Shown here piece by piece: positions 584-27,834 of a DNA stretch of 36,192 bases. The DNA comes from Jimgerdemannia flammicorona (lineage: Eukaryota): the NCBI GenBank assembly GCA_003990765.1, contig RBNJ01000227.1, positions 1 through 36,192 of the forward strand. Direction: 5' to 3'. The notes beneath the pieces were generated by a model. That model was given only the letters and a program-made list of their open reading frames with translations. It did not search any database and was not told the DNA's origin. A program made the position numbers and the translations under genes. The stretch's first letter is position 1; each line of letters begins with the position of its first letter.

Positions 584-2750
584 CTATATTAGAGTAGATT
601 TTCTGAATCTTGATCTTGATTTCTTCTTCATTATTGCTATCTTCTAGAAGGGCTAGTGGTTTATCATCTTCTTCCTCCTCCTTTTCTTGTCTTATCTGTT
701 TCTTGAGAGCCTTCTGTCTTCTTTTATAATAGATTTTCTTGATTCTACTAATATACTGATAGTAATCATCAATATGTTTTATATAATACATCTTGATTCC
801 ATAAGGATAGACTCCTTGTAGTATATATTTTTCAATGATCCTTTTGTACTATTCTTCTTTACTGATTCATCCAACTTTCTTCTTCTTTTTCTGAGTAGTT
901 ACCATATAGGCTTCTTCTTGCTTCCTTTCTTCTTTCTCTATCTCAGACAGTACTCCTTTATTAGCATTAATAGGAATTTACATCTTCTGATCTTGGTAGA
1001 TAATCTGTATCTTCTGGACATTGAGGTCAATTATTGCTCTAGCTTTATGAAGTCACTGATTACTGATGAGGATGTTATAGTTAGTAGTATTAGTTATAAT
1101 TATATCTACTGAGATAGTTGCTCCTCTAAACTTGATAGGAATATCTCAGATCTTTCTCAGAGATATGACTCTTATACTATCTGCTATAATGAATATTAAT
1201 TTGATTGCTTCTTCAATCTCTCAACCTAGGCAGTCTACTACTTTCTTGCTGAAGAGACATCCTTCTGCTCTAATATCAATAATGGCTTTGAAGATTCTAT
1301 CTTCAATTTGATAGATTGTATAGGTAGAGATCTTATAATTGTCTTTACTTTCTTCTCCCAAGTCTTCTTAAACATTGTTGGCCTTGATTATCTTTTATCC
1401 TTATTTCTTAGTTATCTCAGTAAGTTTATATCTCATTTGCTATCTGAATGTAAGTATTTCTACCAGCTGGTCAAAGATTATATTGAACTTTTGTTAGCTG
1501 AGATCCTTGAAGATATCATACTTGAAGGTCTTGGTTTTGTATAGTTTCTTCTTCTTTTCTCCTTTACTGACTAGAGCAGTTTCTTAGATAATATCTTGGA
1601 CAGCCTGTTCCAACTCTATATCTTAATCTATTTTTTTCAGCTTGGCTTTCTGTAGTACTCTCTATCTATTTCTCCACTGGGTTCTTCTTAGGTCTCTCTG
1701 ATAGTCTCTTATAGGGTTTCTTTTGAATATCTTTCTTAGTAGTCTATACAGAATAGGTCTCTCATTCTTCTTCATCTGATTCTCTAATTTCTTCAAAAGT
1801 AATAATATTGGTCTATTTCTTGTTCTTTATAATATTACTTGGCTGAGCTTTATACTTGATCTTACTTATATATTTATATAAGTAGTGGTCTTCTTCTCTA
1901 CAAATATAGCAGGTATCTTTCTTCTTGTCTAAGATGGCAGTAAACTTCTAAACTGAGTGATGGTCTCTTTCTCTGATCACTTTTACTATATCTCCCAGGT
2001 GAGTAGTCATTTCAGTAAACTTTTTAACAAGTTTCTCCATAGGGTTGCTATTACTCTATTGCTTAGTAGCTCTGGCTAAGGTATGTTTCAATTGATCACT
2101 ATAAATAGGAATTATACTAGTTGCCTTAGGTACTTTGATTCTGACTCCAGTGACTCTTTCTATTATATAGTCTTGTGAATATCTGGCTATTCAATATTGC
2201 TGGACATAGATGATCTTTTGTACTAGATCTAGCATTACTAATAATGAGCAGATAGCCATGGCTATCTCTGGGTAAACCCCTTTTATGAAGATTGCTTTGG
2301 CTACTTGATCTCAGATAGTATTAGTATAATTAGTAAGAATTATCTGATATGATATTCTAGTGTAGAATGTGTTTGAATCCTTACTCATTCTTTGATATAT
2401 TATATTGAGCTGATTCTTCAGAGCTTACTTAATCTCATCTATATAATAGATAGTTTAGAGTCAGGTCTTCTATATTGTTAGTATAGCATTATCATCATTT
2501 CCTACATAGGTTATAGCTGTAAATACTGCTCTTGCTGGTCCTCAGAGACTGAAGGGCATCAGAGCTACTTACTGTCTTACTGTCACAGTCCTTATAGCAG
2601 CATTCTGCTCAAAATTATCAATGAAGGTAATGATTGATTCATCTGAGGTACATATATCTGTAGAATACTAGTAATCTCATATCTATCTTATCTAGATATC
2701 TTGATTCAATTTGTATAATTGTTGAGGTAGTAGTAGTTATTCATTATTTA
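584..2750 (-). pseudogene. Relic Ty3/Gypsy element D: gag (CCHC) - aspartic protease - CxHG zinc-finger-like module - first residues of dUTPase
   Basis: Decayed gag (TFIDNFEQNAA...SL*GPARAVF near 2520-2640), knuckle CYICREEDHYLYKY near 1875-1912, protease AIIDIRAEG (DTG decayed) near 1260-1290 similar to the element A protease, *YKRIIEKYILQGVYPYGIKMYYIKHIDDYYQY near 755-850, then IKIQKIYSN cut at 584. Right boundary approximate. Confidence 0.8.
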
Positions 2751-3239
2751 ACTTGAAAGTGAGAAATTCATCTTAAATCATCAGTCAATAGGCACTAAGT
2801 TATAATATAGCATATATATAACTATATACATAAGTATATCAGATTTCTGTATCTTGAAAACTTAATCTTCTTTGACTCTGCAGAGTCCTCGGGATGTAGA
2901 AGTGGGTGAGTTCAAAGTATATCTGTCTATAGGCTTACTAGTTCTCTTACTTTCTCTTTGCTTTGAACTACATATTTTGATCTGAGGTTTATTTACTCTA
3001 GATATTAGGATATTTATACAAGTTTGCTAGCTATATGTTGGCTGAGTTATAAGTCACTTTTTGTAAATATTATATTTCTTTAGTATCTGCAGAATCTTTT
3101 GTATTTGCCAAAGTTTCTACAATTGTAAAATATGACTGCTATTTATAAGGCTATACTATATTTAGGAATCAGATTCAGATACTATAATTAAATATCTATT
3201 CTCCTGATTTATATTTCTAATTCAAATTAACTATTATAA

Positions 3240-4110
3240 TATATTAAGATATAATATATATATTTTTAATAAAAGTAATACCAATCAGTACAAGTTTAAG
3301 CTAAAGGCTAGCAAGTATGTGTTTTTTAGATATTCTGATAAGGTATATTAATTTGAGATCAATGTAAATATAATAGTAATCTTATATAATATGCAGTTTA
3401 ATAAAAAAGAAAATCAGGAATCTCATATAGATATATCTATCAGAATCTCTATTTCAATATCTATATCTCAGTTAGTACAAATACAATATCTACCATTAAT
3501 CTCTCTGATTAAATAAAATTATTTTCAACTATTATATATATCTGAGCCAAAGTTATCTGAGCTAAAGATAATAGAGATTAAAGATAATAAGACTGATAAT
3601 AATGAAGAATTCATCAAGAGATAGGAAAAGCCAAAGTGTAAGCTCAGAAATGAGACTTATTTCAATTTAGAAAATTATTAAGATATGTTAGAAAATCTTA
3701 GATAGTAATATAAAACTATATAAGCTATGCTGAGATATATAAATATATATTTATTATAACTTCTAACAAGCCAAATATATATGATAAAGTAATAATATTC
3801 TCTAATAGTAATAAATAGTAAAGTATAATAAATAAAAGTATAATTCACTTATTAAGAATAATATATAGAATCTGATATCTCTTCTAACCAATTGATAAGC
3901 TATAGAATTACATTAGATCTATAAAATTAAGTATAAGAGCAATAGAAGTATATATAGAATATTATAAAGTCATTTTGTTACTAAGAGTTATTTATAAAAT
4001 TATAATATAGATTATGATAAGATATTTTTACTAATATTCAAGTTTACTTTATTAAGAATACTTCTTATAATTAATACTATATATAATTTGAAAATCTATC
4101 AGATACATAA
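3240..4110 (+). pseudogene. Highly mutated Ty1/Copia pol fragment (integrase C-terminal SH3-like region plus RT N-terminus)
   Basis: KFKLKASKYVFFRYSDK (KL.PKA.KC.F.GY consensus); YNSLIKNNI*NLISL, *IYKIKYK, FVTKSYL*NYNIDYDKIF, LKIYQI (VAKGY.Q..GIDY.ETF ... QMD consensus after G->A/C->T reversion). Integrase before RT is the Copia order. Confidence 0.75.
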
Positions 4111-4466
4111 AATATAATGACTGCTCATAAGGTTTTAGTCTGCAAATTATAACAGTATATCTTATAACCAGCAGATAATCTATCTGGACTATTTTCTAAG
4201 AGATATAGTATCAGTAACTACTTATCTATGAGACTTTCAAAGCCAGAGAAGTTTGAATCATCAACTGATTGGTCAAGATCAGAATTAAGCCCTTGCTCTA
4301 TATGAAGAGAGCAACTCTTCACTATTATACCAAAATATATATGGAAGATATCAGCTCATAAATACTACTTTTCAACCCTCTGTCAGAAGTTATAAGATTA
4401 GCAAATTTTTCAGACTAGACTAATGAATAAGAATATTCAAGAGAAGATTCTTATTCAGGAGAAAGA

Positions 4467-6032
4467 TGTAATGGTAATCTCAGAATAGTGATATTATCAT
4501 AGAAGACAGCCTTTCCTTATAAGTCACTAGATCAGAGCATAAGAAGATTATATAGTATAACTCACCCAGGCTACAAGATGAGCAATGATGACCAACTATG
4601 AGTCATCATGACTATAAGATAGATATCTCAAAGAATATTAAAGAAGAACTAAGGAACTACAGTAGTAGCAACTCAAACAAGACTTACAAAATCTCAAAAT
4701 AGCTCAAGACTTACTATAAATGAAATGTCTGCTGTCTGCTAAACCTCAAGGTCTAGGAACTATCAAGGATTCTCAGTCTAAGAAAGAATATTCCAAGATA
4801 TCAAAAGAGCCATGAGGATCTATATATATAAGAAAGACTTCTAGCCTCAACCTGAATACTGGTGACCCTTATCACTTTATCCTCTACTGTTATGAAATAG
4901 AAATAAGGATCATTATCACTACCAAATACCTTTGGATATAGTAGGAGTATAAAATAAAAAACCTCCTCTGCTGGGAATTCCCTCAGGCTAGTCTCCAAGA
5001 GATATAAGATGTCATCTTTATAAATAGGATAGCCAAGAAGATTTATCAGATCTTTAGGCATACACTATGGTTGATCCCCAACTTGGAGTATATTAGAGTC
5101 TCAGATTTTAAGGAATTGTCAGCCTACCACACAAATATAATAGAAGCCATAGTGGTCACATAAGCCCAATCCACTATTACTCTTAATAGTAATGGTTCCA
5201 GCATCTCATTCTTCAGAACAATCCAGATCAATTTCTGCAAAGACTGACCTCAGTATTTCAAGACCCCAGTATTCAGGTTAGACCTCTCTAAGATCCCACA
5301 TTTATTCTATATTTTGTAGAAGAGAATATTATAGATTAGAGAGCCCCTGATCTCCTTACTCCTGCTGCTGAACATAATGATGTCATCCACAATGATATTA
5401 TCAGCAATGATATCATCCTGCTAATTAGTGATATGAACAAAGTATATAAAATGTGCAATATATATAAAATGGATGAAACATTCATAGATCTCATCTCCTT
5501 CAAAGACATCCTGTTTCTGATCTCTAACTTTGATGATAGTAATAAAGATGAAGTCTCTAGAGTTCTGAACATTCTGTTCTAAGTTTCTTATATAACTATT
5601 TATCTGAACACTGAAATCTTCTGGCATCTTTTTCTTATATAACTGAAATCTACTGGCATCTTGAACTTATGCAACCATTTGTACAGACACTTGAATTTGT
5701 ACTTATAACTGAAGTTTTCTATATTCCAGTATTTATTTAGTTATTAGAATTTATATTTAGCTTTATATCTTAGCAACTATTGAATTATATTTTATATAAA
5801 TACCTCTCTTATTTTTTTGGAAATAAAGTCAGTCTCCTCAGTTCATACTTAATTCCATATAAACAATTTAAGAGATAACAAGACAGTTTAAAGATAAGAA
5901 GTTTGAGAACTATAAGATCTTAGGAAGATACTCTAATAAGAACTTACTTATAACAAACTTGTAGTTAGTCTAACAGATATACCTTAAAGAGAATCTGACA
6001 TACTTAAAGAACTCAGTATCTATTATATAATA
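4467..6032 (+). repeat. Family-A LTR (~1.57 kb)
   Basis: Starts TGTAAT after the PPT. End matches the reverse complement of 8638-8700 (terminal TGACA decayed to TAATA). TATAAATA near 5795 and AATAAA near 5822. Confidence 0.8.
4725..5582 (+). pseudogene. ORF-X copy inside the family-A LTR (decayed)
   Basis: ATG at 4725 (MSAVC*TSRS...), contains IPNLEYIRVSDF, QNNPDQFLQ and FIDLISFKDIL; ends TAA 5580-5582; several stops. Confidence 0.75.
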
Positions 6033-6107
6033 GTATAATTATTTTGTAGTTATTACTTAGTTATATTATATTTCTACTTATATTGTATATTATTTTATTA
6101 ATAGAAG

Positions 6108-6683
6108 TAGTACTCTGAATGAGCTGATCTAGATCAGATTCAAATCCCATTCAAATTGATTTGAATCAACTATTGTTTTGATTTCCAAATTAGACAATTA
6201 AATGTTTACATCAATAACTCAATAAATAATCATCTAATTTTGATGATCTTGATATCATTTAAAAGCTCTTAATAAGGCCTTTCTAATGATATCAAAAATA
6301 CTGAAATTAGATCATATATTGCTGAGTTATCAAGGAAAATATCTGACTTACCAATTTTGGAAATTATTCAACTTGTCAATTTTGGAAATTTCTTCAAAAG
6401 AATGTTTTCATTAATAGCTTAGTAATATATAATCTGATTTTAATGCTATTGGTATCATTAGAAAGACACTATTAAGGGCTTTCAAATAATACTAAGATTA
6501 TTAAAATTGGATGATTATTTATTAAGTTATTAATATATATAAACATTTAATTATCTAATTTGAAAATCAAAACAATGATTGATTTGAATCAATTCAGATA
6601 GAATTCAAATCCCATCTGAGATAGAATTCAATCCAAATCTAATCTAAATCTATCTGGATTAAATTGACTCATTTGATATACTA
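6108..6683. mobile_element. Non-autonomous hAT-like MITE with an internal ~190-bp inverted repeat
   Basis: 8-bp TSD AATAGAAG (6100-6107 and 6684-6691); imperfect TIRs TAGTACTCTGAATGAG.../...CTCATTTGATATACTA; arms ~6154-6342 and ~6402-6594 are reverse complements. An 8-bp TSD with TAG ends is typical of hAT. Confidence 0.8.
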
Positions 6684-6741
6684 AATAGAAGTATTAAAAT
6701 TCTCATTATTATATCTCAATAATATAGCTTATTCTGTAATA

Positions 6742-6910
6742 TAATACAGCCAAATTTGACTGTAAAAAAAAAAAAATTAAATTTTTAAAAATTTTTTTAA
6801 CTTGATAAAAAAAGTTAGAAAAGTTGAAATTTTTTGATTTTTTGATTTTCTTTTGATTTTTATAATATTTTTATAATAGTTTTTTTTTATAGCCAAATTT
6901 GACTATATTG
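6742..6910. mobile_element. Small MITE, probably Tc1/mariner type (TA target)
   Basis: ~30-bp TIRs (TAATACAGCCAAATTTGACTGTAAAAAAAA / TTTTTTTTATAGCCAAATTTGACTATATTG) flanked by TA on both sides. Confidence 0.65.
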
Positions 6911-9042
6911 TAGAGTAAGAGATATAACTATATCATCTTTAAGTTATATTACTTAATGTATAAATATATAATATCTGGAATAATAAATAACTATCTCTCT
7001 TCTCCTCTATTCTATATTTCTAACTAATATATAATAAGATCTGATATCTATAATAGTTAATATAGAGAACTACATATCTACTAATACTTAAATCTTTCAA
7101 TTAGAGTAATATTATAAATCTATACTTATAATATAGTAGTTATAGCTATATATAAGAGTAGAAGACTTATAGACTATATTCATAATTATAACTCTTATAA
7201 ATAAAGAGATATATTAAGAAAATAGTACTAAAGATAATAAAAAGGCCTTCTATAGCTTCTATAGATATAGTGGTAATAAATAAGATTAAAGTCAGTATGA
7301 CTAATCAAATTAAAATTAATAAAGATAAATCTAAACTCAAAATTAAATAATAGTAACTAATTAGTCAAGTTTGATAGTTATAATAAATATTACAATAAGT
7401 ATAAATATAGGAAATACATACTATTGTTATTATAGAGAGAATAATAAGAAGAGTAGTAGTAAAAATAGAGTAAGATAAAGGAAAGTATAATATAAATACT
7501 ACTAAAACTAATAAAAGTAGTAATCTATTTTTATATAAGCTACTAGTTCTACTATCAGGTCTACTATTAGCTTCTTTATATATATAAAATCCAATTAATA
7601 GGATTATAATTTTTAACTAACAAAAAGTCTTATTAGCATTAGTTCTATTGCTAACTATATATTTAGTTATATACCTACTAAATACAGTACTAATATAGTT
7701 AATAACAATGATATCTAGCTTATAAATTCTAGTACTATATAATATATAATAGTCTATAGAGAGTAGTTTTCTATATATGAGTCTTTTAAGTATCTGGTAC
7801 TAATTAAACTAAGTAATAATAATATTATATATACTCATGATAAAGAGAATATAGAAATATATCTCTATAGTAATATTATCAAGTCTACTATTATTCTCAT
7901 AGATACTGTATACTCTAGAGATAGAAAAGAACCTCTTTTCTATTAGTAAGATGATAGCTTATAGTAATAAGAAGATATCCCTTTATCTGTTTTATATTTA
8001 TATTTAGAGATAAGATTTTAAAATTTTATAACTTTTAAAATTATAATAGCTTTTAAAAAAAATTTTACCAATAATTTTTTATATAATAATTCTATCTTTG
8101 ATAAAAATTTTATAAAAAAAAATTATTTTTTTTTAAACAAATTGAGATATATTTTTTAATAGAAAAACAATATTTCAAAAAATTGTTTTTTTCAAAATTT
8201 AATTTGTCTACTAATTGATTTTAAAAGATGATCTTATCTATAGTCAAAGAGATATATATCTGGAAGATACTATTATATATAGTCTATATGGTAATAATTA
8301 TAACAAGAAGTTGATAATAGTCTCAAAATAAGATATTTTTATATAATCAATAGTATACTAAATAGAGTAAAGTCTCTGTATATATAATAACTATACCCAA
8401 TATATTTAATATATATATAATATTAGTATTTGGAGTATATAGGATGATCAGAAGTAGCTTAGTAAGTGAATTACTGATAGTATATCTATATGATAGTTTT
8501 TATAAAAAATAAAACATCTTAGCACTCATTTGAAGAATAATTAAAGTATATTTCCAGTATTCTAGATCTTATCCATATTGATATATATAGGCTAATGTAT
8601 ACTCTATTATACTCTGGTAAGAGATATTTTCTTATATTGTCACATAGTAATTGCTGAGTCCTTTAAATATACCAGATTCTCTTCAAGATATATCTCTTAG
8701 ACTAACTCAAGTTTGTTATAAGCAAGTTCTTATTGGAGTACCTTCCCAAGATCTTATAGTCCTCAAACTTCTTATCTTTAAACTATCTTGTTATCTCTTA
8801 GATTACTTGCAAGAGATTATATATAAGTAAACTGGAACTAACTTTATTTTAGAGGAAATAAGAGGAGTATTTATATAAAATATAATTCAATGATTGCTAA
8901 GATATAAAGCTAAATATAAATTCTAATAACTAAAATAAAATACCAAGATATGGAAAACTATTAAGTTTCAGTATTAGCACTAATGGTTGCACAGATTCAG
9001 GATACTGATATAATTTCAGTAGTATAGGAAAATAGTGCTGGA

Positions 9043-9122
9043 ATAATTCAGTATCACATCAGAATACTAGTGTTGGCATAATTTGGTGTCACATCAGAAT
9101 ACTGGTGCTAGCATAATTTGGT
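9043..9122. repeat. 35-bp tandem repeat (~2.3 copies) in the LTR downstream of the ORF-X stop
   Basis: ATAATTCAGTATCACATCAGAATACTAGTGTTGGC / ATAATTTGGTGTCACATCAGAATACTGGTGCTAGC / ATAATTTGGT. Confidence 0.8.
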
Positions 9123-9135
9123 ATTACTAAGGGAC

Positions 9136-9988
9136 TTAGAGCAGAATATTCAAGACTATAGGGGCTTCATTTTCATCAGAGGTCAGGATATCTTTGAAGA
9201 AGATAAGGTCTGTGAATGTTTTATCCATCTTATTATCATTGAGTAGGTTGCATATTTTACATATATCACATAGTTCACTTATGTCATGCAGGATGACATC
9301 ATTATCAATGACATCATCATATTCAGCAGTAGCAGGAATAAGAAGGTCTGGGGCTCTCCAGTCTATAAGGTTCTCTTCCACAAAATAGGGAACAAATGTG
9401 GGATCTTGGGGAGGTCTAACCTGGATGCTTGGGCCTTGGAATACTGAGATCAATTCTTGCAGAAATTGGTCTGGATTGTCCTAGAGGATGGGATACCAGA
9501 AGTTTTCTACTTCATCACTATTGAGAGTGATAGTGGACTGGACTTCTGTAGCCACTCTGGCTTCTAGTACATTGATATAGTGAACTGATAGGTCTCTGAA
9601 GTCTGAGACTCTAACATACTCCAAGTTGGGGATTGACTATGGTACATACCTGAAGATCTGATGAATCTTCTTAGCTGTTCTTATTTCATATATCCATGGG
9701 AGTGGTATCTTGTAACTCTTAAGGGCTGGCCTGTGGGAACTCCCAGCAGAGGAGGTTTCCTATTTCATACTCCTGCTATATTTAGAGGCATTTAGTAGCA
9801 ATAGTGGTCCTTGTTTCCATTTTACAGCAGTAGAGAATAAAGTAATAAGGATCTACAGTACTCAGGTTAATACTAGGAGTCCTTCTTGTGTGGATCCTCA
9901 TGGCTCTTCTGATGTCTTAAAATATCCTTTCTTTGACTGAGGTGCCTTGGTGGTTTCTTGACCTTGAGGTTTGGCAAGCAGCAGACAT
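9136..9988 (-). pseudogene. ORF-X copy inside the 3' LTR of element A (~284 aa ancestral; stops and a 2-nt deletion)
   Basis: ATG at 9988; QIFRYVP*SIPNLEYVRVSDFRDLSVHYINVLEARVATEVQSTITLN...FWYPIL*DNPDQFLQELISVFQGPSIQ; the C-terminal part is track ORF 9136..9453. Confidence 0.8.
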
Positions 9989-10132
9989 TTTATTTATAGT
10001 AAATCTTTGAGCTATTTTGGGATTAGTGAGTCTTATTGAGTTGCTGCTACTATAGTTTTTTTTTTTTTTTATAGTCACTTAGACTCCACCTTTATTACCA
10101 GTCTATGAATAAATATACATTATTTCTACCCA

Positions 10133-13100
10133 CTATCCAATCCCCACAGGGGGGCCCCTCCCTACTTCCTCACAAATGAAAATTACCCTTTCACCAACTA
10201 CCTCAACTCGCCTCCCACTTTGCCCACAGATTTTCTCCACCAAGCAGCACCTCCGACCACCCCACATCCCCCAACCCAGCCACCAGTCTGTTAAGGTGTC
10301 TTCCATAAGCCTATGCCACCACAGCAACCAGTCCCCTAAGCTCTGTCTCCTCCCATCCTCAAAAACAAATAGCCAATGACTGGCCAGCCTCACCCAAATA
10401 GCCAAAGCCCAACCCAAAGTAAGCCACTCCTTCCCTATCCCCCCTACCAATCTATCCCTCAAGTTCTCCCACTGCCCCTGTACTCCATCACCCCTACCCC
10501 ATACCCCCAAGCAATCCCCAATTGTCTGCCAAAAATCCCCCAACACCTCACACTCTCCTAGCCAATGTTCTGGCATCTGTACATAACCCCCCTCCTGCCC
10601 TACATTATGGTACTCCTCACAGTCAAAGCAACCCCCTATGACAAGGTGCCCCAAGCAAAAGTTGAGCATAATATTCCTCTGCAGCATGCACCACCAGATC
10701 TCCCAGTACTTTGGCGGCAGCCACGTTCTCACTGCAGCACTCCAGGTCCAAACACCATACCAGTTCCACTCTTCACCAATTCCAACTCCTTGCCAACTGC
10801 TAGGCCACAGATCCTGGCCTGGTCCCCTTTGGCATTCCATTTTATTACCAATGTCGAACTCAATTAAAGGAGTGCCACCCAGCAGTATATGATCCCATCT
10901 CCACATTGCCAGGTCCCAATCCTCCTCTCCTTCATTCCCCTGCCAATGAATACCAATGCAGTGTACCCCTTCAGCAATCCCCCACCAAAATCCTTTATAT
11001 CACAGTTGGGCAGTGTTCTGAAGCCCAACCAAGGAGAGGAGATTGCCAGTTGAGCCCCTTGGCAATGTCTGCCTCTCCCATATCTTCTGTAGCAGAGGCA
11101 CCCATCCACCTTCTCTCAACTCCACCACTCTCTTCAGCCACCATGCTCTCAAGCAGTGTAACCATTTTGGAAAGTCAACCAGCCCAAGACTACCTCTTGC
11201 CACTGGTAGGGACAAGGTCTCCCAACTAATCTGACTCTACCTGCCAGCCCAGATCCATCTCTTTGCCAACTTCATCAATCTCTTCACCACCTAAGCCGAG
11301 AAGTCCAGATAATATGCCAGGTACCACAACTTTAGCAGCCAGTAGACATTCAAAATTGAGACCCACCCTGCTAGAGAAAAATGTCTTTCCCCCCAACTCT
11401 GCAGGGCCTCCTCCCAGATTCCAATTCTCTGCTCCCACCAAAGCCTGGGCAGAACTGATCCATAGACTGATAAGTAGATACCTAAGTACCATACTGCTTC
11501 ACTGGTGGGGACAATTGTTCCTATAACTTCCCCTCCCACCAGGCCATTGCCTAGCACCATTGTCTCACACTTATGCCAATTCAGCTTAGCTCCAGAGTAC
11601 TCCTCATACCACTCCACAGTCTTCTTGAGCTCCTCAATATCAGCAATCGACCCCAAACCCACCACCATGTCATCAGCAAAGGCCCCAACTTTCCATCCTA
11701 TGCCAAAGACAGAGAGCCCTGCTATCCTCTACCTAATTCAGTCCATAAGGGGTTCTAGGGAAAGAGCATACAAAATGGGAGACAGTGGATCCCCCTAGGG
11801 CACCCCCCTACCCAAGGGGAATGCTACCCCTCTATATCCATTACATGTGAGTGCAGCCCTACTCCCTTCCAGTAGGCTGACCATTGCTGACCAGAATTAT
11901 TGCAGAACCCTCATTCTATCTAAAACTTTCGCCAGCCAGACTCTTCGCACCCGGTCATATGCCTTCTCCTGGTCCAAGAAGACTAGATGCCCATCCAGTC
12001 CACAGGCCCTTGCTCCTTTGATAATGCCATGCACCCAGGCAGTGCCATCCCTGATGAGCTGACCACCCACAAATCCCCTCTGCTCAACACCCATAACTTG
12101 CTGGGCCACCTTCTATAGTCTTGCCACCACTACCTTAGTTACCAACTTTTTGTCCATATCTAGCAACATTATCAGCCACCAGTTCTTCCAATCCTCCCAC
12201 CTTCCTTTGTTTTTATAAAGCAGTATCACCAGCCCAAGGTCCTGCTCCCCCACCCACCTCCCTGTCTGTAGAATAAGGTCGCACAATGCTGTCATCTCTC
12301 CCATTACCCCTGGAACTCCAACCATTCGCTTCCAAAAGTCCCAGGGCAGACCATCCTCCCCAGGTGCCATACCTGGTGTTGTCGTGGTAAGAACCTAGTG
12401 GATCTCATCCTCCTGTACAGGCATCACCAGGTCCCCTAGCCCTTCGACTTGTGGTGGGTACCAATCCTCCAATGTTCATTCAATTGTAGCAGCATCTATC
12501 CCACCCTCCTCCTCACTTCACAATCCACTCCATCTCTCCTTCAGCAATCCAAGAATGTCCTGTACACTATGCACCAGTATACCATTGGAGTCCAATACCC
12601 CTTCCCACCATTGCTGTACTCACCTTGCCCTAAGGGCCCTTGTAAGAAGCTTGGAAGGCCTCTCTCTGTCCTCCAGATCCTGCTAGTGAAGACATGCTAC
12701 CAAGCTCTGTACCCTTGCCTCTTCCTCCTCCCACAGCACCTGTTGAAGTTCCCCAACCTCCATTTTCGCCCTCATTAATCTCCAATCTTCTTCTCCCTCC
12801 AATATTGTCAGCCTTGTCCACTCCTCCAGGAGCCTCATCAATCTAGCAGAGGCCCAATACACTCTTTACCTTCACTGCTTCCCTGCCTTCTTGCCAGCCT
12901 CCCTCTAGTAAATCCTGGCCATTTCTTTCATCCTCATCCACTGAGTCCCAACTGAGGCCCCTTCCTGCCTCCAGTTCTCCACCCTCAGCTGAATGTCTTT
13001 AGCCCACTCATCCCACCAGGTCTTGTCATCTAACAAAGAGAAATTGAGGTGCCAATGTCCAGGCCCATCCCCACTTCCCCCAAAGCACTCCTGTCTCAGA

Positions 13101-13789
13101 AGCCCCCAGTGATCCAACCATGGACACCATTCCACCTCCAGTGACTTCCAAACATCTAGTCCCCAGCAGCAGGCCATCAAAATCTAGTTGATTCTAGTCC
13201 CCAGACCCCCTGCCCAATGTGTATAGACTCTCCTATTCCCCCAGCACTCCCTTCCAGCATCTAATAGTGCACTTAGTCTTTCTACTTTCTCCTATGCCAC
13301 CAGTCCTCCACTCCTGCTCTCAGCACCTCATCCTCCATCTATTCTATCCAACAGTATGTCCCAAACCATATTGAAATCTCCCCCAAGCATATCCACCCCA
13401 GCCTCTGCAAGTAATTTACTCTTCTGTAAGCCTTTCACCCAATCTACTCTCTCACTCTATACCACAGGGCAGTAGCAGGAGCCAACCATAACTGGCTCCC
13501 AGCCTGCCTGAATCCACTCTCCCCAGACCAGTCTCTCCCTCCAGCACCATACATTCTGTATCTCCCCTCTGTCTTTCCTCACCAAAATCCCAACCTTGCC
13601 CTTCCAAATCACCACACCTCTCCATTTCTTCATCCATTTCATCCTATCAGAGTCATCTTTGCACCAGACATCCTGCAAGAGGAAGAGATCGGCCTCCAAT
13701 TCCTTCATCCAAGTAAAAATATTCCTACGTCAAGAAGCGCCCCATAACCCATTTATGTTCAAAGAGAAAATGTAGGTTGTACTGTTCAT
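10133..13789 (-). pseudogene. LINE ORF2: APE endonuclease - reverse transcriptase - C-terminal Cys/His motif (spans 1219 codons, many stops)
   Basis: FSLNING, DLFLLQD, GGDFN, GPGHWHLNFSLL; PGEDGLP, QRGFV, LDQEKAYDRV, GDPLSP, FADD (~11669-11680), YLG; CFDC...EHWLGEC. The main track fragments share one frame with the ATG at 13789. Confidence 0.92.
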
Positions 13790-13822
13790 AATGATGATAT
13801 ATGTTATGTTGTCAATTAGTCT

Positions 13823-15844
13823 CTACTGCTCCATGCTCATCTCCTCCTGCACCTTGTCCAGATTATGTTCCACAGCCACCTCCTCCTCTTCTGCCCTCTG
13901 AGCCTCCAATCCAGCCAGCAGTTCAGTCATCTCGCCATCTGCCTTCTCCTCAAACTTCTCTTGGTATTTGATGCATGCCTTCTGCAAGAGCTGTAGTCCA
14001 TGATACTTATTCCAGCAGTATTCAGCCCTCTCTCCAGCAATGACCGCCATCTCTACCTCCCTCTCCTTATCTACCTCATACCCTTCCTCCTCCAGATACA
14101 CTGCAAGAATTTCCACCTTCAATGCTCTCATGATGCCATCCCCCTACAGTATCTCTGCCCAATGTTCATCACTTATCACTCACAAGTCCACTTCCCCCAA
14201 CTCTTCCGCTGCCAGGTTATTCATCATCCAGCATATCCAAAGCAAGTTCCCCACCTCTTTTCCCCCCAGAGTCACTGGCCTCTCTCCATCCAACATTGTG
14301 GTGTCAGCTCCAGCACTTGCAGACTCATCCCATACCTCCGGGACATCTACTAGTTCCTCCTCACCAGCTGCCATCACCTGTCCTCCATATGTCACCTCCA
14401 GAACTCCAAATTGCACCCTCTGGGCCCCTCGCATTGGCACATCTTCTACCACCCTGTTCCGGGAAGCCAGGCCATGCCTGATGAGCAGGGTAGGGGTAGG
14501 GGAGCCCCCCCAGTCCTTCTCCCAAACCTCCAGTATACCATCCACATACAGGTTCTTCCTAGCCTTCTCCTTGTCCTCCCCCACCTCCTCCTTGTCCTTC
14601 CCCTTCCCCTTGCCAGCCCAGACACTTGCTTCAGTACCCCCTGTGCCCTTCACCTTGCTCGCCTCTCCCAGTGGTCTGCTATCCAGCTTGGCCAGCAACT
14701 TCTTCTGTCTCTTATGCCCCTGAGCCCTTTCCCACTGCTCCTTGGTCACTCGAATCCACTTTCCATCCACCACCTCCAAGTGTGTCGACTCCACAAAGGC
14801 CTCTCAAGCCTTCACTCGCCTCTCTACAGTATCACCCAGCTCTTCTAGTGCTTCCAATAAATCCTCCTCCTCCTCCTCACTCCCCTTCACCTTTGTCACC
14901 TTATACAGGATTGCTCTCCAGACCATCGCCGAAGGCCAGTCCCTTGCCTTTCCAGTGGCTTCTTTCCCAGCCAGCTGAATTCTCACATCCACGTCATCAG
15001 TCTGGAGCAAGGTCCCTTCCCAGACCCTGAATCTGATATCCACCACCTCTCTATATTCTGCCATAAAATCCTCAACTCTCTTCCTTATCTCTATCACCAT
15101 CACCATCGGCACTCCTTTCACCAGCAGTTGGACCACCCTGGGGTCCCACTTCAGGCACCGCACCATTGGAACACACACCTCCCCAACCACCAATCTAACC
15201 TTCAGCACCTCCTCCAGTGGTGCTACCTCCTCAAAACCCACCTCCACTCCTTCCAGTCCCTTCAAAAACTTCACAGATGCAGCTCCTGCCACCTGCTTTG
15301 CAATGAGCCCCAGTACCATTTTCGCCATCACCACTAGGCCCTGGAAGCATAGTGTGACTGCGAATGCTGAAATCGATTTTTTGAGTAATGGGGCCACCAC
15401 CAGACCCATTACACCATCTGCCAAGTCCCCTTGTCTTCTAAGCCTCAGCCACTCAGCACCATCAGCCATCATATCTGGATTTTTTTCCAGATTGACAGTT
15501 CCACCACCATCAGCAGTCACACCCCCCCCAGCTGCTACTCCCCCTGCTCCACTGCCCCCCCTTCCAAGGACCACTCCCCCCTGCACTGTCACCTTCTCGG
15601 TCTCCTTGCCCTTCCTCAGCCAGCCCTCCAGCCCTGACGCCTGCTGTCTCCCCTTCACCATCTCTGCAAAGCTCACCCTCCCAGATCCTGATCCTCCACC
15701 ACCTCCTCTACCCCTTCCACATCTACCCACTAGCAGGCCCCTCATACCCCCTCCCAGGCCTGGACCCCTCCCCACCTGCTGCCAGTTGAAAGCACTTAGG
15801 CCACCCTGCCCAGTATGTACCTCAGGTTGCCTGTCAGTTGCTAT
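13823..15844 (-). pseudogene. LINE ORF1 (Gly-rich N-terminus, probable RRM-like middle, acidic C-terminus; ~674 codons with stops)
   Basis: Track ORFs 14804..15775, 14180..14794 and 13823..14131 share one frame; probable start ATA (ex-ATG) at 15844; sits 5' of ORF2. Confidence 0.75.
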
Positions 15845-16122
15845 GATATTAGTCTCTTTTCGCCAAAAATGATATTAAAAGTGCCTTCCAAAGGTTGTAT
15901 AACTTGAATGGTACTGGAAAGAGCCCATATTGTGCTGCTACTATAGTTTCTTGATCCTTCTTTTATATTTCTCAAGATGTCTATACTGTGGTTACAATGA
16001 CTCACAGTGGATCATAATTGCTCATCTTGTATGCTGTATGATCTTCTTATGCTCCAATCTAGTAACTTGTAAGGAAAGGCTGTCTCCTGTACTGATGTCA
16101 TCATTCTGGAGTCACTGTTATA

Positions 16123-16132
16123 TCTTCCTCCT
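16123..16132 (-). other. Polypurine tract of element A (AGGAGGAAGA)
   Basis: Directly abuts the LTR start at 16122; same arrangement at 4457-4466. Confidence 0.8.
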
Positions 16133-16435
16133 GAATAAGGATCTTCTTGAGTATCCTTATTCATTAGTCTAGTCCTGAAAAATTTACTGATCCCATAACC
16201 TCTAGCAAGGGGTTGAAAAGTATTATTTATGGGCTAATGTCTTCTCTATGTATTTTGGCATGATGGTGAAGAGTTGCTCTCTTCATATAGAGCAAGGGCC
16301 TGATTCTGATCTTGATCAATCAGTTGATGGTTTGAACTTCTCTGGCTTCAAAAGTCTCATAGATGAGTAGTTGCTAGTACTGTATCCCTTAGAGAATGGT
16401 CCAGACAGATAGCCTGCTGGTCACAGAATATGCTG

Positions 16436-19400
16436 TTATGATTCGCAGACTAGAACCTCATGGGCAGTTATCTAGTTTTGCTTCTCTTATATAGGTTTAT
16501 GGTACTTCTTGAGTCTGTTCCTGTATACTATGGTAGGCAGTATAGTCTCTGAGATTTTTCTAAGCTAGAAGGTAGTTTCCTTGATATCTTGTATATAGAG
16601 GGTCCTTTCCATTTGTACTTCAGTTTTCATAACCATGAGGCTTCTACCATATTTCAATATAGTAGGACCTTTTCTTCGATTTGAATGGGTTCTAGGGTCT
16701 TGTGATTCTTTTCTGCATTTTTTCTTATCAGTACTTGTGACTTGATGATGTGATCTTCAGCCTTCTTTCTGATTTGGTGTAGTCTCCAGATTTCTGCATT
16801 GACCCATCTCCAAGTTAAGTCTAGATTTGTGGCTGAGGTTCTATCAGAATCTTCTTCTCTGAAGAGCAGTTCTCTTGGAGTAAAGTGTGTGCTCTGTGAC
16901 TATATGTCTCATAGGACAGAGAGGGCAGTTGGGAGGTAGTTATCCTAATTCTCATATGTCTCTGAGATTTTCATCAGGATGTTCTTGAGGGTCTTGTTGG
17001 TTCTTTCTATCTGTCCATTTCCTTGAGGGTAGTATGCAGTGGTCTTGATGTGCTGAATCTTGTATTTCTGATACATTATCTCATAAAATCTATTGACAAA
17101 TTCTGTACTGCAGTCTGTGGTGATTTGCCTTGGTGTCTTGTAGTGGCAGATGATTTCTCAGTATAAGAAGTCAGCTATAGAGAGAACATTGGTTTCTTAT
17201 AATGCTCTTGCTTCTATCTATTTGGTAAAGAGGTCTATAATAACTATAATATAGCAGTTTCCTGATATTGTTACTAATAGTGGCTCAATGATATCTATTG
17301 TGATATGGTGGAAGGGGATAGGCTCAATTCTTGATGACCTAGATATCTGGTCTTACTGATCTTGTTTCTGTTTTTGACACTTATCATACCCTTTGACAAA
17401 TTGGCATAGGTCTTCTTTTATTTTGGACCACCACATAGTTCTTCTTGCCTTATTGTATGTATTGGTTCCTCTTAGGTATCCTTGCTTATGTACTTCTTTC
17501 ATTACTTGATACTTCTTGTATTCAGATATTACTAGTTTTTCTCCTTTTCTGAGTATAGTGTTATCTAGTTCAAACTATTTCTAAGTCTAGTTGATGATAG
17601 TGATTGTCCAGGGTTTGAGGTGGTTGGGCATCTTCTGCTGCCTAAGATAGCTGATTAATTTATAGTATAACTCCTTATTCATATTGAATAGTCTTGATGG
17701 GGGTGTTTCAGAGTATCCTTGAGAGTATATCAGCATTAGTATTAGTTCTTTCTAAGCAGTACTTGACAGTACAGTCATACTCTTGCAGCCTGTAGATCTA
17801 TCTGATATATATTCCTTTGGGGTTCAGAGTGTGGAATAGCCAGGCAAGAGCAGAATGGTCTGTTTGAATAGTGAAGTGTTTTCTGGCTAGGTAGTAGTGG
17901 AACTTGTCTACTATCTAAACTACTGCTAAGCATTTGAGCTTACATGACTTGTAGTTCTGTTTTGCTCTGTAGGTACCTCAGCTTACATAGGAGATGACAT
18001 ATTTATGTCTATCTTTCTTCTGAGCTAAGACTGCTCCAAGTCCTATAGTACTCACATCTATTTGTAGGATGAATTCTAGGTTCCAATCTGGTCTTCTGAG
18101 GATAGGTGCTTGGGTCAATCTAGTCTTGAGTTTATTGAAGATTTCTTGGCATTTCTTGGTCCATTTGAATTTGGTCTCCTTCTTCAGTAGCTTGTAGATA
18201 GGTGCTATAATATTGGAGTATCCTTTAATGAATCTTCTGTAGTAGGAGGCTAGTCTAAGAAAGGCATGGACTTCTATAGTTGTTCTGGGTCTTGGGTAGG
18301 CTGCAATAGTCTTGATCTTCATGGAGTCTGTATAGATTCTAGTTTAGTTGATGAGGTGTCCTAGGTAGGCAATTTTCTGAGTAGCAAACTTGCATTTCTT
18401 GGGCTTGATGTAGAGGCCATACTCCTTGAGCTTCTTGAGGGCTAGCTGTATGTGATTGATATGTTCTCATGCAGTATTGCTGAAGATGATCACAATATCA
18501 ATATAGACAAAGAGCCATTTTTCAATCTTGTTACTGAAGACTCTGTTTATCAATTACTGAAAACTTACTAGGGCATTACACATTCCAAACAGTATTTGCA
18601 GGTAGATATAGGTGGCATCAGGTATGATGAAGGCTGATTTCTCACTGGTATCTTGAGTGAGACCAATCTGATGGAAGCCTGAGAATAGATCTAAGGTGGT
18701 ATAGTATTTGGCTTCACTTTCAAAGAGTGGTAAGGATTTCTTGAATATTTGGTAAGGGCTGCCTATCCTTCTTAATGATTGTATTGAGCTTCCTGTAATT
18801 AATGCAGAGTCTTAGTACAAACTCTCCAGGCTTGCTTCCTTTTTTTGAGGCAAGGATAATGGGTGAAGCCTAGGGACTGATAGCTTGCTTGATAATTCTG
18901 GCTTCTTTCATTTCCTTGAGTTCTGCTCACAGCCATTCTCTGTAGGCAGGTGGTATAGGTCTGGCTTTCTGATAGATGGGCTTGGTATTATCAGTGTCAA
19001 CTTCATGATAGTACTTGGGTTCTTGATTATAGATATCCCTGAAGTCTATAGCAAGTACTCCTTTATTCTGGTGTAAGAACTTGAGAAGTTATTCTTTTAG
19101 AGAAAAGTTTTCTCCAATAGTATATATATACTTGTTTTGGTCCCTGTCTTTCTTGTACTTAAGTTTGGTGATCTTGGTGGCAGTATAGGCTCCTCTTCCA
19201 GTAGATCCAAAGTCTTGTTCTCCTCTCTTAGTCTTGATGAGTTTGATGGCTTCAGTGATCTTGAGCTTCTTAATTTCATAGATCAGTATCTGGCCAATTC
19301 TGTCATACTTCTTGACTTCAAATAGAGTGATGGGGTTGTGATTCCTAACTATGAGGAAGATCTTGCCAGTGTAATCAGAGTCAATTACTCCTCCTTCAAC

Positions 19401-19453
19401 TGAGATTTCACTTTTGGCCAGACTGCTCCTAGTCTTAATAATTCTAGTATAGT
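16436..19453 (-). pseudogene. pol: Element A pol, 3' part: dUTPase C-half - RT - RNase H - integrase (no chromodomain)
   Basis: TRSSLAK, GGVIDSDYTG, DRIGQ, RGEQDFGSTG; decayed YIDD near 18495-18505; FLRLASYYRRFIKGYS; LQIDVSTIGLGAVL, QTDHSAL; TTAYYPQGNGQIERTN; KWKGP and VYRNRLKKY; stop at 16436-16438. Confidence 0.9.
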
Positions 19454-20260
19454 TGTAATAGAATGAGCGAACAGATGGGATGCAATGAGATGAACAATCA
19501 TGTGACCCGGCGATGACATCATCATATGATCAAGCATGGCATATGGATAACGAGTGATGAATGATGTAAATGAACAACACAGAAAATGATATTTAGCTTA
19601 TCCCTGACAACCAGCACTGCAGCAACAATTGCCATAGCTACTGATCATTGCTTAGTAATTGAGGTCCTGATCACAAAGACATTTTTTACCAAAAACCACC
19701 TGACAAAGGTCATAATCACAAACCTCATTATAGTTACCAAATTAGTCACTCATACTTAGTCAGAAATTGCAGACCAACTTGTATAAATACCCCCCAGTTT
19801 CCATCTGAAATAAAGCAGTTTTAGTTTAGTCCTTGATACTAGAATCAAGTCCCCCCCATACACACACATTCCCCTGAGTCTTAGTAATGACATCTAAGTG
19901 ACTCTAGTGTTTCTGACTAAACTCCAGAAGCCTAGCTAACTTCTGCCAGAACTGAGACTGGTATATAAATCCCCAAAGACTTAAGTAAACCCATTGAACC
20001 TGAATTTCAAGGCAAATTCAGTCTGTGCACAACAAAGAACAAGACCCTCGAAATAGGGCACAAGAGAAAGACCTTTGAAACAGAAGGCAAACTAGAGAAA
20101 GACCTTTGAAAGATAAGGCACTGCTGCTACAACTACTTTAAGTGAGCACTTCCTCAAACTGAAGGCTTCTTGGTACACATTGTGTACTAAGTCCCTAAGT
20201 AATAGTTCACTTCCCTAATTATTCAAAGAATAAGAGGGGGTAGAAGTGAGAGTTATTACA
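19454..20260 (+). repeat. 5' LTR of B (807 bp)
   Basis: Direct repeat of 27835-28611; TATAAATA 19782-19789; AATAAA 19809-19814. Confidence 0.95.
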
Positions 20261-20263
20261 ACT

Positions 20264-20275
20264 TAGTAGCAGCGG
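20264..20275 (+). other. Primer-binding site of B, probably initiator tRNA-Met (TAGTAGCAGCGG, ex-TGGTAGC...)
   Basis: 3 nt after the LTR end. TGGTAGC is complementary to the ...GCUACCA 3' end of eukaryotic tRNAi-Met; element C retains TGGTAGC. Confidence 0.7.
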
Positions 20276-21964
20276 ATTACCAGCCAAGAAGGCACCAAAT
20301 AACACACTCCTGAAGTTGGAATAAGACCAACCTTGGACAGGAGTAATCCCCAGAATCAACTGTGGATCCTCAAACCAGAGCTAGAGAAGCCCTTGCCATT
20401 AGGACCAGGTAGTACCAGGAAACCACAGACCCAAGAACCCATCAGCTTGTAATTGACCAGACTTACAAGAATCTATACCAGGTCTTTAGGACATACCACC
20501 CAGGACTTAGGAATATTGTTAGCCACCGTAGGTTCTACGAACTCCTATGAGGACACATTGGAACCACTAGGACCCCAGAATCTACTGCTGCAGCCACCCA
20601 GGATTTTTTAGATTATATCACACCCCCTGCTATAAGAGAAGCAGCTGCTGAGTGGATTGCCTCTGACAGATATCATCATACCCCTACCAAGACCTCCCTC
20701 TACTATTGGCTAGTTGTATACTATGCCTCTGCCATAACTAGGTACATATGAGAATGAGCAAGCAGGCCATCCATCCCCTACTGCTGAACAAGAAGCAGGT
20801 CCATCTACCCAGCCAGAGACTGATATCCTCTTTGAAGGACCTAGTCAGTATGAGGACACACTATCTCATCAGAGAAGAGAGTCAGATGAAGACTCTACAG
20901 GTTACCAGTCTGACAATAGCCAATGAGGAACAGCAGGCCTAGGAATTTACCAAGGAACTACAGGTCAAGAAGATCAGACCCCAGAACCAATCCAGCCACC
21001 TACACAGAGGTTTGGTTTACCCTCTCTCATAGGACTCTTTGACTTAATATCCAGGAACTAAGTAACCCCAAGTCATATAGCACTACAACCCCACCAAGCA
21101 GAACAATCTTCAGGAGAATCTACCTCAACAGGCCCACTACTACTAGTCAACACAATAGTAGATATCAACATTACAGTACTGACCACCCAGCTAGCAGCAC
21201 TAGCAGGGATAGTAGGACAGATTGCTGAACAGAACAAACCAACCAAGACCTTGCAAATTCCAACATTTAGTGGAAAAAACAGTGACATTGAAAACTTCAT
21301 CAATGCAGTTGATACAGGCAACCGAGCAAACCAATAGAATGACAACCGAGTACCTATAGGAATGCTCACCAACAACCAGAACAGCACCCTTTAACAGCTG
21401 TTTGCCACATCAGCAGCACAAGTAGAAACAGTAGCCACATTCTTCACTGGAACAGCAGCCAAATTCTGGTGAACCTTGGAATAACACCCAGTAACCTGGG
21501 AAGCCTGCCCTCAAGTCAATAGACAAGTATCTGGCAATAATAGACCAGGTTGGGATGACTACAAAGCAAGCCCCGGACTCAAGGTCTTGCTACTAACCAA
21601 ATTGCGAAATGCAGCCTACATACAAGAAACTTGGAACAAACTGTCCCAGATGAAGTTCCACAAGAATGGTGAAGAAGATCTAGAGACCTTTGCCACCAGA
21701 ATGGATGCATATCTCAAAACAGTTGGACTTACCTACCAGGAGAACAATTTGGCCATCAATGGTATCAGAGCCAATCATCTCTTTATAGCCCTACCAGACT
21801 GGCTCACCCAGAAGATCAAGGAACAAGATCTTCCCCAAGGATGCCCCCACTACTCATGGTGCTTTGCCCAAGTACAAAGAAGAGCCTGCAAAATCCTTGC
21901 TGCACAAGCTCCACGAAATCAAGAACACAAGAAAGATATCCAAGATAGGAGAAATCCTACCAGG

Positions 21965-22030
21965 AGAAATGATCAAAGAAATGATCAAAGGAATGACCAA
22001 AGATATGATCAAAGATATGATCAAAGGAAC
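21965..22030 (+). repeat. 12-bp coding tandem repeat in B gag (RNDQ/RYDQ x5)
   Basis: AGAAATGATCAA-type units repeated in frame. Confidence 0.85.
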
Positions 22031-22229
22031 CAGCAAAACCCCAGAGGTCCCAGACCTCCCACTGAGAATAAGAAGAAGCAGCTCCATGAAAAAGGATTGT
22101 GCTTCATCTGCAAGAAGGCAGGACACATCTCAGTCAAATGCCCCAAGAAGAGAAACAGATCAGGTGAACCCAGTAACCAGAACATTACTGTCATTGGAGA
22201 AGGTCCAGGAAAGAAGAACCCCAAGAATG

Positions 22230-22645
22230 TCATCAAAGTACAGAAGATATGGTACAAGGCTACCATCCCCACTAAGGCCCACCCAACTGATGCTGGATAT
22301 GATCTTTATAGTAGCCAAGACCTCACCATCCCACCAAGCACCAATGCTACAGTGCGAATAGAAATTGCAATGCAAGCTCTCAAAGGAACATACATCTGCC
22401 TTGCTGAACAAAGCAGCCTAGCCAAAGAGTTCAACATTGGGCTAGGAGGAGGAGTAGTTGACCAAGAATTTACTGGTGAAATCTGTGTCATCTTGTGAAA
22501 TTTTGGAGACACATCATTTGAAGTCAAAGCAGGCCAAAGAATTGCCCAAGCAATCATTGAAAAAATCCATCAAGATCTCACTATTGAAGAAGTCTCTGAA
22601 CTCTCCCAGACAGATCGTGGCAAGAAAGGGTTTGGATCTATCAAT
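22230..22645 (+). pseudogene. dut: dUTPase domain of B (between nucleocapsid knuckle and protease)
   Basis: All five trimeric dUTPase motifs are recognisable; motif 2 RSS is decayed to QSS and there is one TGA. Confidence 0.9.
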
Positions 22646-26920: not shown

Positions 26921-26928
26921 TATAAATA
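26921..26928 (+). promoter_or_regulatory. Putative internal TATA box for ORF-X of B
   Basis: TATAAATA ~70 nt upstream of the ORF-X start; analogous placement in family A. Confidence 0.45.
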
Positions 26929-26992
26929 CCCAAGGCAAGAATACCCCACAACTCTTATCTCCCTTTCCTCACAAAGAAAAGACAAGACAAGA

Positions 26993-27823: not shown

Positions 27824-27834
27824 GGGGAGAAGAA
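27822..27834 (+). other. Polypurine tract of B (AAGGGGAGAAGAA)
   Basis: Directly precedes TGTAAT at 27835. Confidence 0.9.

Follow-up and report, generated by a model that had tools for sequence, protein, structure and literature searches.

We analysed a 36,192-nucleotide stretch of Jimgerdemannia flammicorona DNA (assembly GCA_003990765.1, contig RBNJ01000227.1; hereafter the window, whose numbering is used for all positions) by screening it against itself with blastn and a repeat finder. The results showed that the window is a nest of decayed long terminal repeat (LTR) retrotransposons, with three LTR copies of one family (A), a complete element of a second (B), the 5′ part of a third (C) and an insertion resembling a long interspersed nuclear element (LINE). 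The subject of this report is the family-A LTR at 4467–6032, within which lie the remains of an open reading frame (ORF) in sense orientation, here called ORF-X. An earlier reading of the letters (the original prediction) had proposed that family-A LTRs hold this accessory gene in their unique 3′ region (U3), that element B keeps it just outside its LTR, and that a shift of the polypurine tract (PPT) turned one arrangement into the other.

The Segment at 4467–6032 Is a Family-A LTR

The copy at 4467–6032 (A1, plus strand) is a 3′ LTR of 1,566 bp and the most decayed of the three, as judged by blastn, alignment and composition. A2 (583–1, minus strand) is cut by the window edge. A3, also on the minus strand, is split into the first 188 bp of the LTR at 15933–16120 and a distal part with an ORF-X remnant at 8638–10058 (blastn and alignment for both, tblastn for the latter), and its PPT and internal 3′ end lie at 16121–16471. 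Self-comparison by blastn and alignment showed that the three copies have an identical 5′ end, TGTAAYGG. A1 begins TGTAATGG, directly after the purine run AGGAGAAAGA (4457–4466, plus strand), and an identical tract precedes the A3 LTR in the alignment. The internal sequence upstream of A1 (4117–4466) matches that of A3 (16471–16121) at 79%, which, together with the PPT at each, indicates that both are 3′ LTRs with their own PPT. At the other end, A1 and A3 stop at one common base beside unrelated flanks, reading ..GACA in A3 and a decayed ..AATA in A1 (6030–6032 = ATA), so that the family termini form the inverted repeats TGTAA..(T/G)ACA. By its start immediately after a PPT and its TG..CA ends, the segment at 4467–6032 qualifies as a true LTR; the closing CA is preserved in A3 but has become TA through decay in A1. 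The boundaries and the length of about 1.6 kb given by the original prediction were confirmed by the three copies, the PPT and these ends.

For A2, the homology begins exactly at TGTAACGG, the first LTR base, and the flank is the protease–dUTPase linker of another A-like element (584–1900, minus strand), whose protease and linker abut the A2 LTR and which is 70% identical to 29156–29419. Since this flank is not the sequence that precedes a 3′ LTR, A2 fits a 5′ or solo LTR; it probably inserted into the A-like element that it abuts, with which it agrees in orientation.

We also compared the window with contigs of public sequencing runs. The matching runs, at shares of at most 0.28, are mostly soil metagenomes, none is listed as RNA, and they were not taken as evidence of habitat. 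Contigs of three runs (one of X1, one of X4 and two of X2) join 10038 straight to 15933, the empty site of the LINE-like insertion in A3, indicating that an uninterrupted A3-type LTR exists elsewhere. In a further run, X8, one contig runs off the A LTR at 16109, close to the 5′ end, and continues into sequence that does not match.

The A LTR Contains the Wreck of a Complete Gene

The ORF-X pseudogene of A1 lies at 4725–5582 on the plus strand and was traced by translation and tblastn through 4725–4817 (frame +3), 4831–5190 (+1) and 5196–5582 (+3). Read in a single frame, this interval contains 17 stops in 286 codons, the terminal stop counted, and the ORF listing has no ORF of 150 or more amino acids in the A1 LTR. 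To trace the gene we used P0002, an intact metagenome protein of 247 amino acids that is the family-A form of ORF-X. On A1, tblastn placed it in the pieces 4788–4817, 4831–5190 and 5196–5576, in two frames, with six stops and a joint E of 3e-57; translation added two further stops within the first 21 codons, giving eight premature stops and two frameshifts in the homologous frames. On A2, P0002 matched with 90% identity over 92 amino acids and 0 stops, and codons 1–113 (341–3) are open. On A3 it matched in two pieces with six premature stops and one frameshift, the ATG being at 9988 and the stop at 9138–9136. The mapping of an intact protein on all three LTR copies indicates that 4725–5582 is the remnant of a real protein gene. 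Moreover, A2, which lies outside a 3′-LTR context, carries the ORF-X start, as expected of a truly LTR-borne gene. The start and stop proposed for ORF-X at 4725–5582 were therefore rightly placed as ancestral ones, but the open frame supposed between them does not exist in A1; a whole gene in sense orientation inside the A LTR was borne out as the wreck of a formerly complete gene.

Most of the A1 stops occupy sites that are CAA, CAG or TGG in A3. We tried a variant genetic code as their cause, and tables 6 (ciliate-type) and 4 (TGA = W) both left the frame closed. All three stop codons are present, there are frameshifts, and other copies have CAA, CAG or TGG at these places, which points to decay rather than a variant code. 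A1 has 80 private polarised changes; C>T or G>A accounts for 62 of them, of which 33 are in CpA context. There are 0 CpG dinucleotides in A1 and in A3 and eight in A2, while the GC content is 32% in A1, 36% in A3 and 47% in A2. From this pattern of base changes, we read the damage of the A copies as decay resembling repeat-induced point mutation or of a deamination type; the resemblance to repeat-induced point mutation suggests that the host is a fungus. Every A copy in the window has been inactivated by C>T hypermutation.

ORF-X Lies Outside the LTR in Element B and in a Related Locus

Element B (19454–28611, plus strand) is a complete, dUTPase-bearing chromovirus identified by blastn, sequence and Pfam, with LTRs at 19454–20260 (807 bp) and 27835–28611 (777 bp) located by blastn and sequence. 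Its ORF-X (26993–27823, plus strand) lies between the end of pol (26338) and the PPT, starting 650 nt downstream of the pol end; its start codon now reads ATA through decay, and one stop (27137) is premature. Across this ORF, the three frames contain 2, 9 and 26 stops. The PPT AAGGGGAGAAGAA (27822–27834, plus strand) overlaps the stop codon TAA at 27821–27823, and the 3′ LTR starts at 27835 with TGTAATAG, directly after it. These results agree with the proposed LTR of about 0.8 kb and with an ORF-X stop that overlaps the PPT just outside it.

A scan of metagenome contigs yielded a sole related locus, L001, and no ORF-X loci were found in viral and prokaryote genome collections. L001 is an intact B-type locus, with the ATG at 376, 291 codons, and the ending ..GATTTCTAAGGAGGGAGGAT followed by TGTAATAAG. 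B and L001 are alike in that the ORF-X stop overlaps the PPT and TGTAAT follows. We also observed that a stretch of 28 nt upstream of ORF-X in L001 (170–197) recurs at 1480–1507, about 220 nt inside the LTR of this locus, with 86% identity, and may be U3-derived.

The A-type and B-type genes are homologous, as had been predicted. A tblastx search of the A1 LTR against the window matched, besides the A copies, only 27098–27466 in B, with 47% identity over 55 amino acids at 27302–27466. By tblastn, P0002 matched B at 27056–27796 with 37.5% identity over 248 amino acids and an E of 1e-48, and alignments showed that A-type and B ORF-X are colinear along the whole protein. ORF-X is inside the LTR in A and before the PPT in B and L001, so that the PPT/LTR boundary lies upstream of the gene in the one arrangement and downstream of its homologue in the other. 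Comparison of B with L001 over 269 aligned codons gave a pN of 0.248, a pS of 0.666 and a dN/dS of about 0.18, with 84, 59 and 130 differences at the first, second and third codon positions. The low dN/dS, the intact relatives and the conserved colinearity together indicate that ORF-X was a selected gene of these elements.

ORF-X Encodes an Orphan Protein with an Acidic Tail

When 1.84 billion protein representatives were searched with a profile, eight matched at E ≤ 0.001. Six of these (P0001–P0005 and P0008) were accepted as relatives; the other two were set aside as long multi-repeat proteins matched in 9–10 stretches. No relatives of ORF-X beyond this small group were found among these representatives, and all relatives are unnamed or 'hypothetical' proteins from short ENA or JGI metagenome contigs. 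On the basis of alignments and of tblastn with P0002 and P0003 on A1, A2, A3 and B, the family comprises P0001–P0005, P0008–P0010 and the L001 ORF, which are colinear and share the motifs W-x-EYEI, AKK-HQ, IPN-x-YV, DNPDQ-LQ, F-x-GP-I, WR-x-P and VLNF. The intact protein has about 270–290 amino acids. A-type proteins end ..VLN(I/F)LL, whereas B-type proteins extend 6–23 codons further to a conserved ..DIDF and stop on the PPT; the gene therefore has a different 3′ junction in each type. The last third of the protein is strongly acidic, with a net charge of −16 to −21. Hydropathy over 19 residues peaks at no more than 0.66, indicating that ORF-X has no membrane segment.

In the ESM Atlas, ORF-X had only chance-level neighbours, and the Atlas's own model had a pLDDT of 0.38. 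A search for fused, longer forms of ORF-X among longer proteins, itself a weak one, found none. According to an AlphaFold2 model built from a 10-row alignment, the protein would be mostly helical. From its composition, we suggest with low confidence that the product may regulate the element or host silencing in a non-enzymatic way. No family or fold supports such a function: nothing rose above noise in Pfam, the best E in a PDB profile search was 0.51, and the mean pLDDT of the AlphaFold2 model was 50 with a pTM of 0.41.

Candidate Promoter and Polyadenylation Signals Flank ORF-X

The original prediction had noted a TATA together with ORF-X. The TATAAAT beside the A1 ATG (about 4715) reads ACCACAAATAAA in A2, the least decayed copy, and CCACAAACAAAG in L001, so this box is a product of C>T decay. 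Farther upstream, at a distance of 87 nt from the ATG, A2 has a box TATAAAAG (428–421) with an aligned counterpart in A3 (15967–15960). In A1, the corresponding position in the alignment with A2 and A3 is occupied by TATTAAAG (4636–4643, plus strand), a decayed form of TATAAAAG, and this is the candidate ORF-X promoter. Element B has GTATAAATA (TATA box at 26920) 72 nt before the position of the ORF-X start codon; in L001, CTATAAAAG lies some 75 nt upstream of the ATG. These upstream boxes are compatible with a dedicated ORF-X promoter in both arrangements.

Downstream of the gene, the sequence of A1 contains the LTR's own TATATAAATA (5794–5803, plus strand), a putative promoter, and AATAAA (5822–5827, plus strand), a putative polyadenylation signal. 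Both had been predicted, and both are conserved in A3. Ancestral ORF-X lies in sense orientation upstream of this TATA (5794) and AATAAA (5822), which is the layout of a U3-encoded accessory gene. With one box upstream and an AATAAA within the same A LTR, a transcript from the upstream box would meet a polyadenylation signal in that LTR.

Contigs of run X8, whose kind we guessed to be RNA, cover the A-LTR ORF-X at 9521–10026. One X8 contig of 946 nt spans 26970–27899, from 23 nt before the B start, across the stop and the PPT, to 65 nt into the LTR. We also noted that the summed depth of X8 contigs ranges from tens to thousands over the A and B LTRs (8632–10632, 15969–16635, 19304–20637 and 27975–28612), while most internal bins are near zero and several gag-pol bins have little or no cover; the DNA runs are even. 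This hints at transcripts derived from the LTRs, but contig depth cannot rank regions and missing cover is no evidence, and these depths were not counted as evidence.

The LTR of Element C Houses a Different Gene

The 5′ LTR of element C (29426–31493, plus strand) measures 2,068 bp, has the ends TGTAAG..CTTACA and is present as a single copy in the window. The LTR is followed by AC and then, two bases downstream, by a sequence resembling a primer binding site (PBS), TTGGTAGCA, read over 31496–31508 as TTGGTAGCAACAG, with the same geometry as after the B 5′ LTR. On its left, the homology of the flanking sequence to the A-like element (997–1256) ceases at 29419.

Within the C LTR, a decayed orphan ORF, ORF-Y (29863–30819, plus strand), lies upstream of a TATA box and an AATAAA. 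It contains six premature stops, and the three frames have 7, 10 and 41 stops. ORF-Y is 62% identical to P0011, an intact metagenome protein of 247 amino acids, and the existence of this intact relative indicates that ORF-Y, too, was a real gene. Like ORF-X it is acidic, and a search gave no Pfam family for it. Its best blastp match to ORF-X covered 48 amino acids with 25% identity and an E of 0.024, hhalign gave a probability of 0.1%, and a tblastx search of the window with the C LTR as query gave no match outside the C LTR itself. The statement that the C LTR of 2.07 kb has the same layout as the A LTR thus holds for position, with the ORF upstream of TATA and AATAAA, but not for the gene, which is unrelated to ORF-X. 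The layout of an LTR-housed gene recurs in C with a different gene; this rests on a single LTR copy.

Families and Nesting of the Surrounding Elements

Element B has the termini TGTAAT..TTACA and a 5-bp target site duplication (TSD), ATAGT, at 19449–19453 and 28612–28616, and a PPT precedes 27835. Two bases 3′ of its 5′ LTR is TTAGTAGCAGCGG, which we take to match an initiator tRNA end. Its Pfam domains are, in order, dUTPase, RVP_2/gag-asp, RVT_1, RT_RNaseH, Integrase_H2C2, rve, SH3_Tf2-1 and Chromo. By its pol order, the chromodomain at the integrase C-terminus, and its LTR ends, TSD, PBS and PPT, B is a Ty3/Gypsy chromovirus (Metaviridae). The reverse transcriptase (RT)–RNase H regions of A and C are 36% and 43% identical to that of B, and all three families have a dUTPase, indicating that they are related but old. 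The dUTPase regions are at 29100–28613 and 19453–17837 (minus strand) in A3, at 22256–22639 in B and at 33548–33925 in C. The position of this domain varies, being between protease and RT in A, between gag and protease in B, and about 1 kb upstream of RT in C. A varying position of dUTPase is also described for fungal chromoviruses in PMC2864245.

The nesting has three levels, with B inside the dUTPase domain of the minus-strand A3 and C inserted farther upstream in A3 (29425/29426). The LINE-like insertion (10059–15932, minus strand) carries an A15 tail and is flanked by a TSD of 17 bp, TGCTGCTACTATAGTTT, at 10042–10058 and 15933–15949. It has a GC content of about 50%, is strongly C-skewed and interrupts the A3 LTR downstream of the TATA box and upstream of the ORF-X start codon. 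Its translation resembles RT and endonuclease in a reading by eye. Between the convergent LTRs A1 and A3, 6033–8637 is a stretch of 2.6 kb with about 20% GC, and a comparable stretch lies at about 3000–4116.

Discussion

Taken together, our results make it probable that A1 belongs, as the 3′ LTR, to a dead and truncated Ty3/Gypsy element of a dUTPase-bearing family, that its U3 holds the wreck of ORF-X, and that the LTR boundary has moved across the gene. A shift of the PPT between the A and B arrangements is a plausible way for this to have happened. U3 would begin where plus-strand synthesis is primed, and the use of a different priming site, combined with a usable TGTAA end, would be the simplest route, by which a single event could bring the gene into the LTR or take it out. 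Reverse transcription of an element arranged as in A would then copy ORF-X into both LTRs, and a TATA box 70–90 nt upstream of the ATG together with the LTR's AATAAA would make up a potential transcription unit of about 1.2 kb per LTR.

Several observations weigh against this reading. The window is without a full-length A element that would offer the two LTRs of one element for comparison, and A2 displays only the first 113 ORF-X codons before the window edge. Outside the coding region, the sequences of A, B, L001 and C could not be aligned except for 26 nt just upstream of the ATG, and the LTR 5′ ends have only TGTAA in common. No relic PPT, LTR end or TGTAA was recognised beside ORF-X in either arrangement, at the places where a shift might have left one. 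TATA-like strings are frequent in AT-rich DNA, and the coverage by X8, a run whose kind was guessed, counts as weak, since contigs cannot show the starts, ends, strand or level of transcripts.

The boundary might have been crossed by recombination instead, a template switch between co-packaged RNAs or on a single RNA having put an ORF-X cassette into the U3 of an A ancestor or duplicated a segment of PPT plus LTR start upstream of the ORF. We regard this as rather unlikely, although it would account for the different C-termini of A-type and B-type proteins, which place the 3′ junction of the gene differently, and for the lack of a relic PPT after the ORF in A; the 28-nt repeat of L001 likewise hints at U3-derived sequence upstream of the gene. 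Yet the orientation and the 3′-proximal place of the gene are alike in both families, and A2 and L001 share a conserved leader just ahead of the ATG (26 nt, 92%), as if a larger block had stayed in place. The present data do not separate recombination from a simple shift of the PPT.

Two other explanations would do away with the crossing altogether or make it accidental. If the 1.57-kb unit with ORF-X were an internal part of the element rather than an LTR, A2 would have to be a deletion derivative or a chimera whose breakpoint coincides by chance with the start of the unit. The window, which lacks a complete A element, and the shared orientation of A2 and the A-like element abutting it would fit such an origin. 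It is nevertheless highly improbable: the A2 homology starts exactly at the post-PPT TGTAA of A1 and A3, the ends of the unit form TGTAA..(T/G)ACA inverted repeats, A1 and A3 terminate at the same base beside unrelated flanks, the X8 contig runs out of the LTR at 16109, close to the 5′ end, into sequence of a different kind, and A has neither a PPT nor an LTR start after the ORF. ORF-X could also be a piece of sequence taken up from the host, or a passenger that does nothing for the element; where it lies with respect to the LTR would then be accidental and of no consequence, and here the lack of any known family, domain or fold and the unnamed or 'hypothetical' status of all relatives are what one would expect. 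But the gene was kept in at least two diverged families and is intact in independent contigs, the dN/dS between B and L001 is 0.18, both B-type copies have kept the close contact with the PPT, and the 1.84 billion representatives hold no relative outside the small group, so we give this explanation little credence. A PPT/LTR boundary that moved across a selected gene remains our preferred reading of the A and B arrangements.

Genes that reach into U3 are familiar from retroviruses. HIV (human immunodeficiency virus) nef overlaps U3, and the tas and bet genes of foamy viruses are 3′ accessory genes that reach into U3, are expressed from an internal promoter and share the genomic polyadenylation site. 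The foamy virus mode, with a gene's own promoter and a shared polyadenylation site, is the working mode that we propose for ORF-X. Unlike ORF-X, nef and tas/bet overlap U3 only partially, belong to retroviruses with env and show no homology to it. A transactivator role for ORF-X would be a guess from its acidic tail. Genes housed in LTRs are also known from the Cassandra terminal-repeat retrotransposons in miniature (TRIM), which have a 5S rRNA gene in each LTR, so that the gene is duplicated and retained in solo LTRs. ORF-X resembles the Cassandra gene in its housing, but the latter yields a Pol III RNA in a non-autonomous plant element, whereas ORF-X is protein-coding. The closest likeness in layout is to mouse mammary tumour virus (MMTV), for which PMC11998498 describes the superantigen gene sag within the U3 of the LTR as well as a dUTPase. 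As in that description, the family-A accessory ORF lies whole and in sense orientation inside the LTR, and both elements have a dUTPase. The two differ in that there is no sequence similarity, that Sag is a type II membrane protein while ORF-X has no hydrophobic segment, and that the host of ORF-X is not a vertebrate; by Pfam, PDB and hydropathy, ORF-X is neither a Sag homologue nor a Sag-type membrane protein.

Among LTR retrotransposons, additional ORFs (aORFs) are described for plants in a review (PMC7264820), and an 'add. ORF' appears in the Figure 3 legend of an article on fungal chromoviruses (PMC2864245). B and L001 fit the aORF class, having an extra orphan ORF between pol and the 3′ LTR of a chromovirus, with sequence compared through Pfam only. 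By contrast, A with ORF-X and C with ORF-Y have their ORF inside the LTR, and a term search of the plant review gave no mention of aORFs within, in or inside the LTR. We found no description of a protein-coding ORF inside a Ty3/Gypsy LTR in the literature searched, outside which most subscription journals lie. It is known, then, that Ty3/Gypsy elements can have an extra ORF between pol and the 3′ LTR and that retroviruses can house a gene in U3, as MMTV does with sag. What is new is that two related families have one orphan gene on different sides of the PPT/LTR boundary, and that a third family has a different gene in its LTR.

A wider interpretation, which we offer tentatively as possible but doubtful, is that a clade of dUTPase-bearing chromoviruses, living in a soil eukaryote that is probably a fungus with hypermutation resembling repeat-induced point mutation, placed orphan genes in U3 more than once, ORF-X in A and ORF-Y in C. 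Each LTR, solo LTRs included, would then be a self-contained protein-coding unit with its own TATA box and the LTR polyadenylation signal; the acidic-tailed products might act as LTR transactivators or antagonists of host silencing, and a moving PPT would be the route by which genes enter and exit. If this were true, these elements would be 'complex' retrotransposons in the sense in which one speaks of complex retroviruses.

The copies in the window are dead, and the LTR-gene architecture is real. It offers a concrete, testable case of a U3 that gains or loses a gene. Solo LTRs of such families, which are usually counted as non-coding debris or as promoters, could encode protein, and such genes would escape any annotation pipeline in which LTRs are taken to be non-coding.

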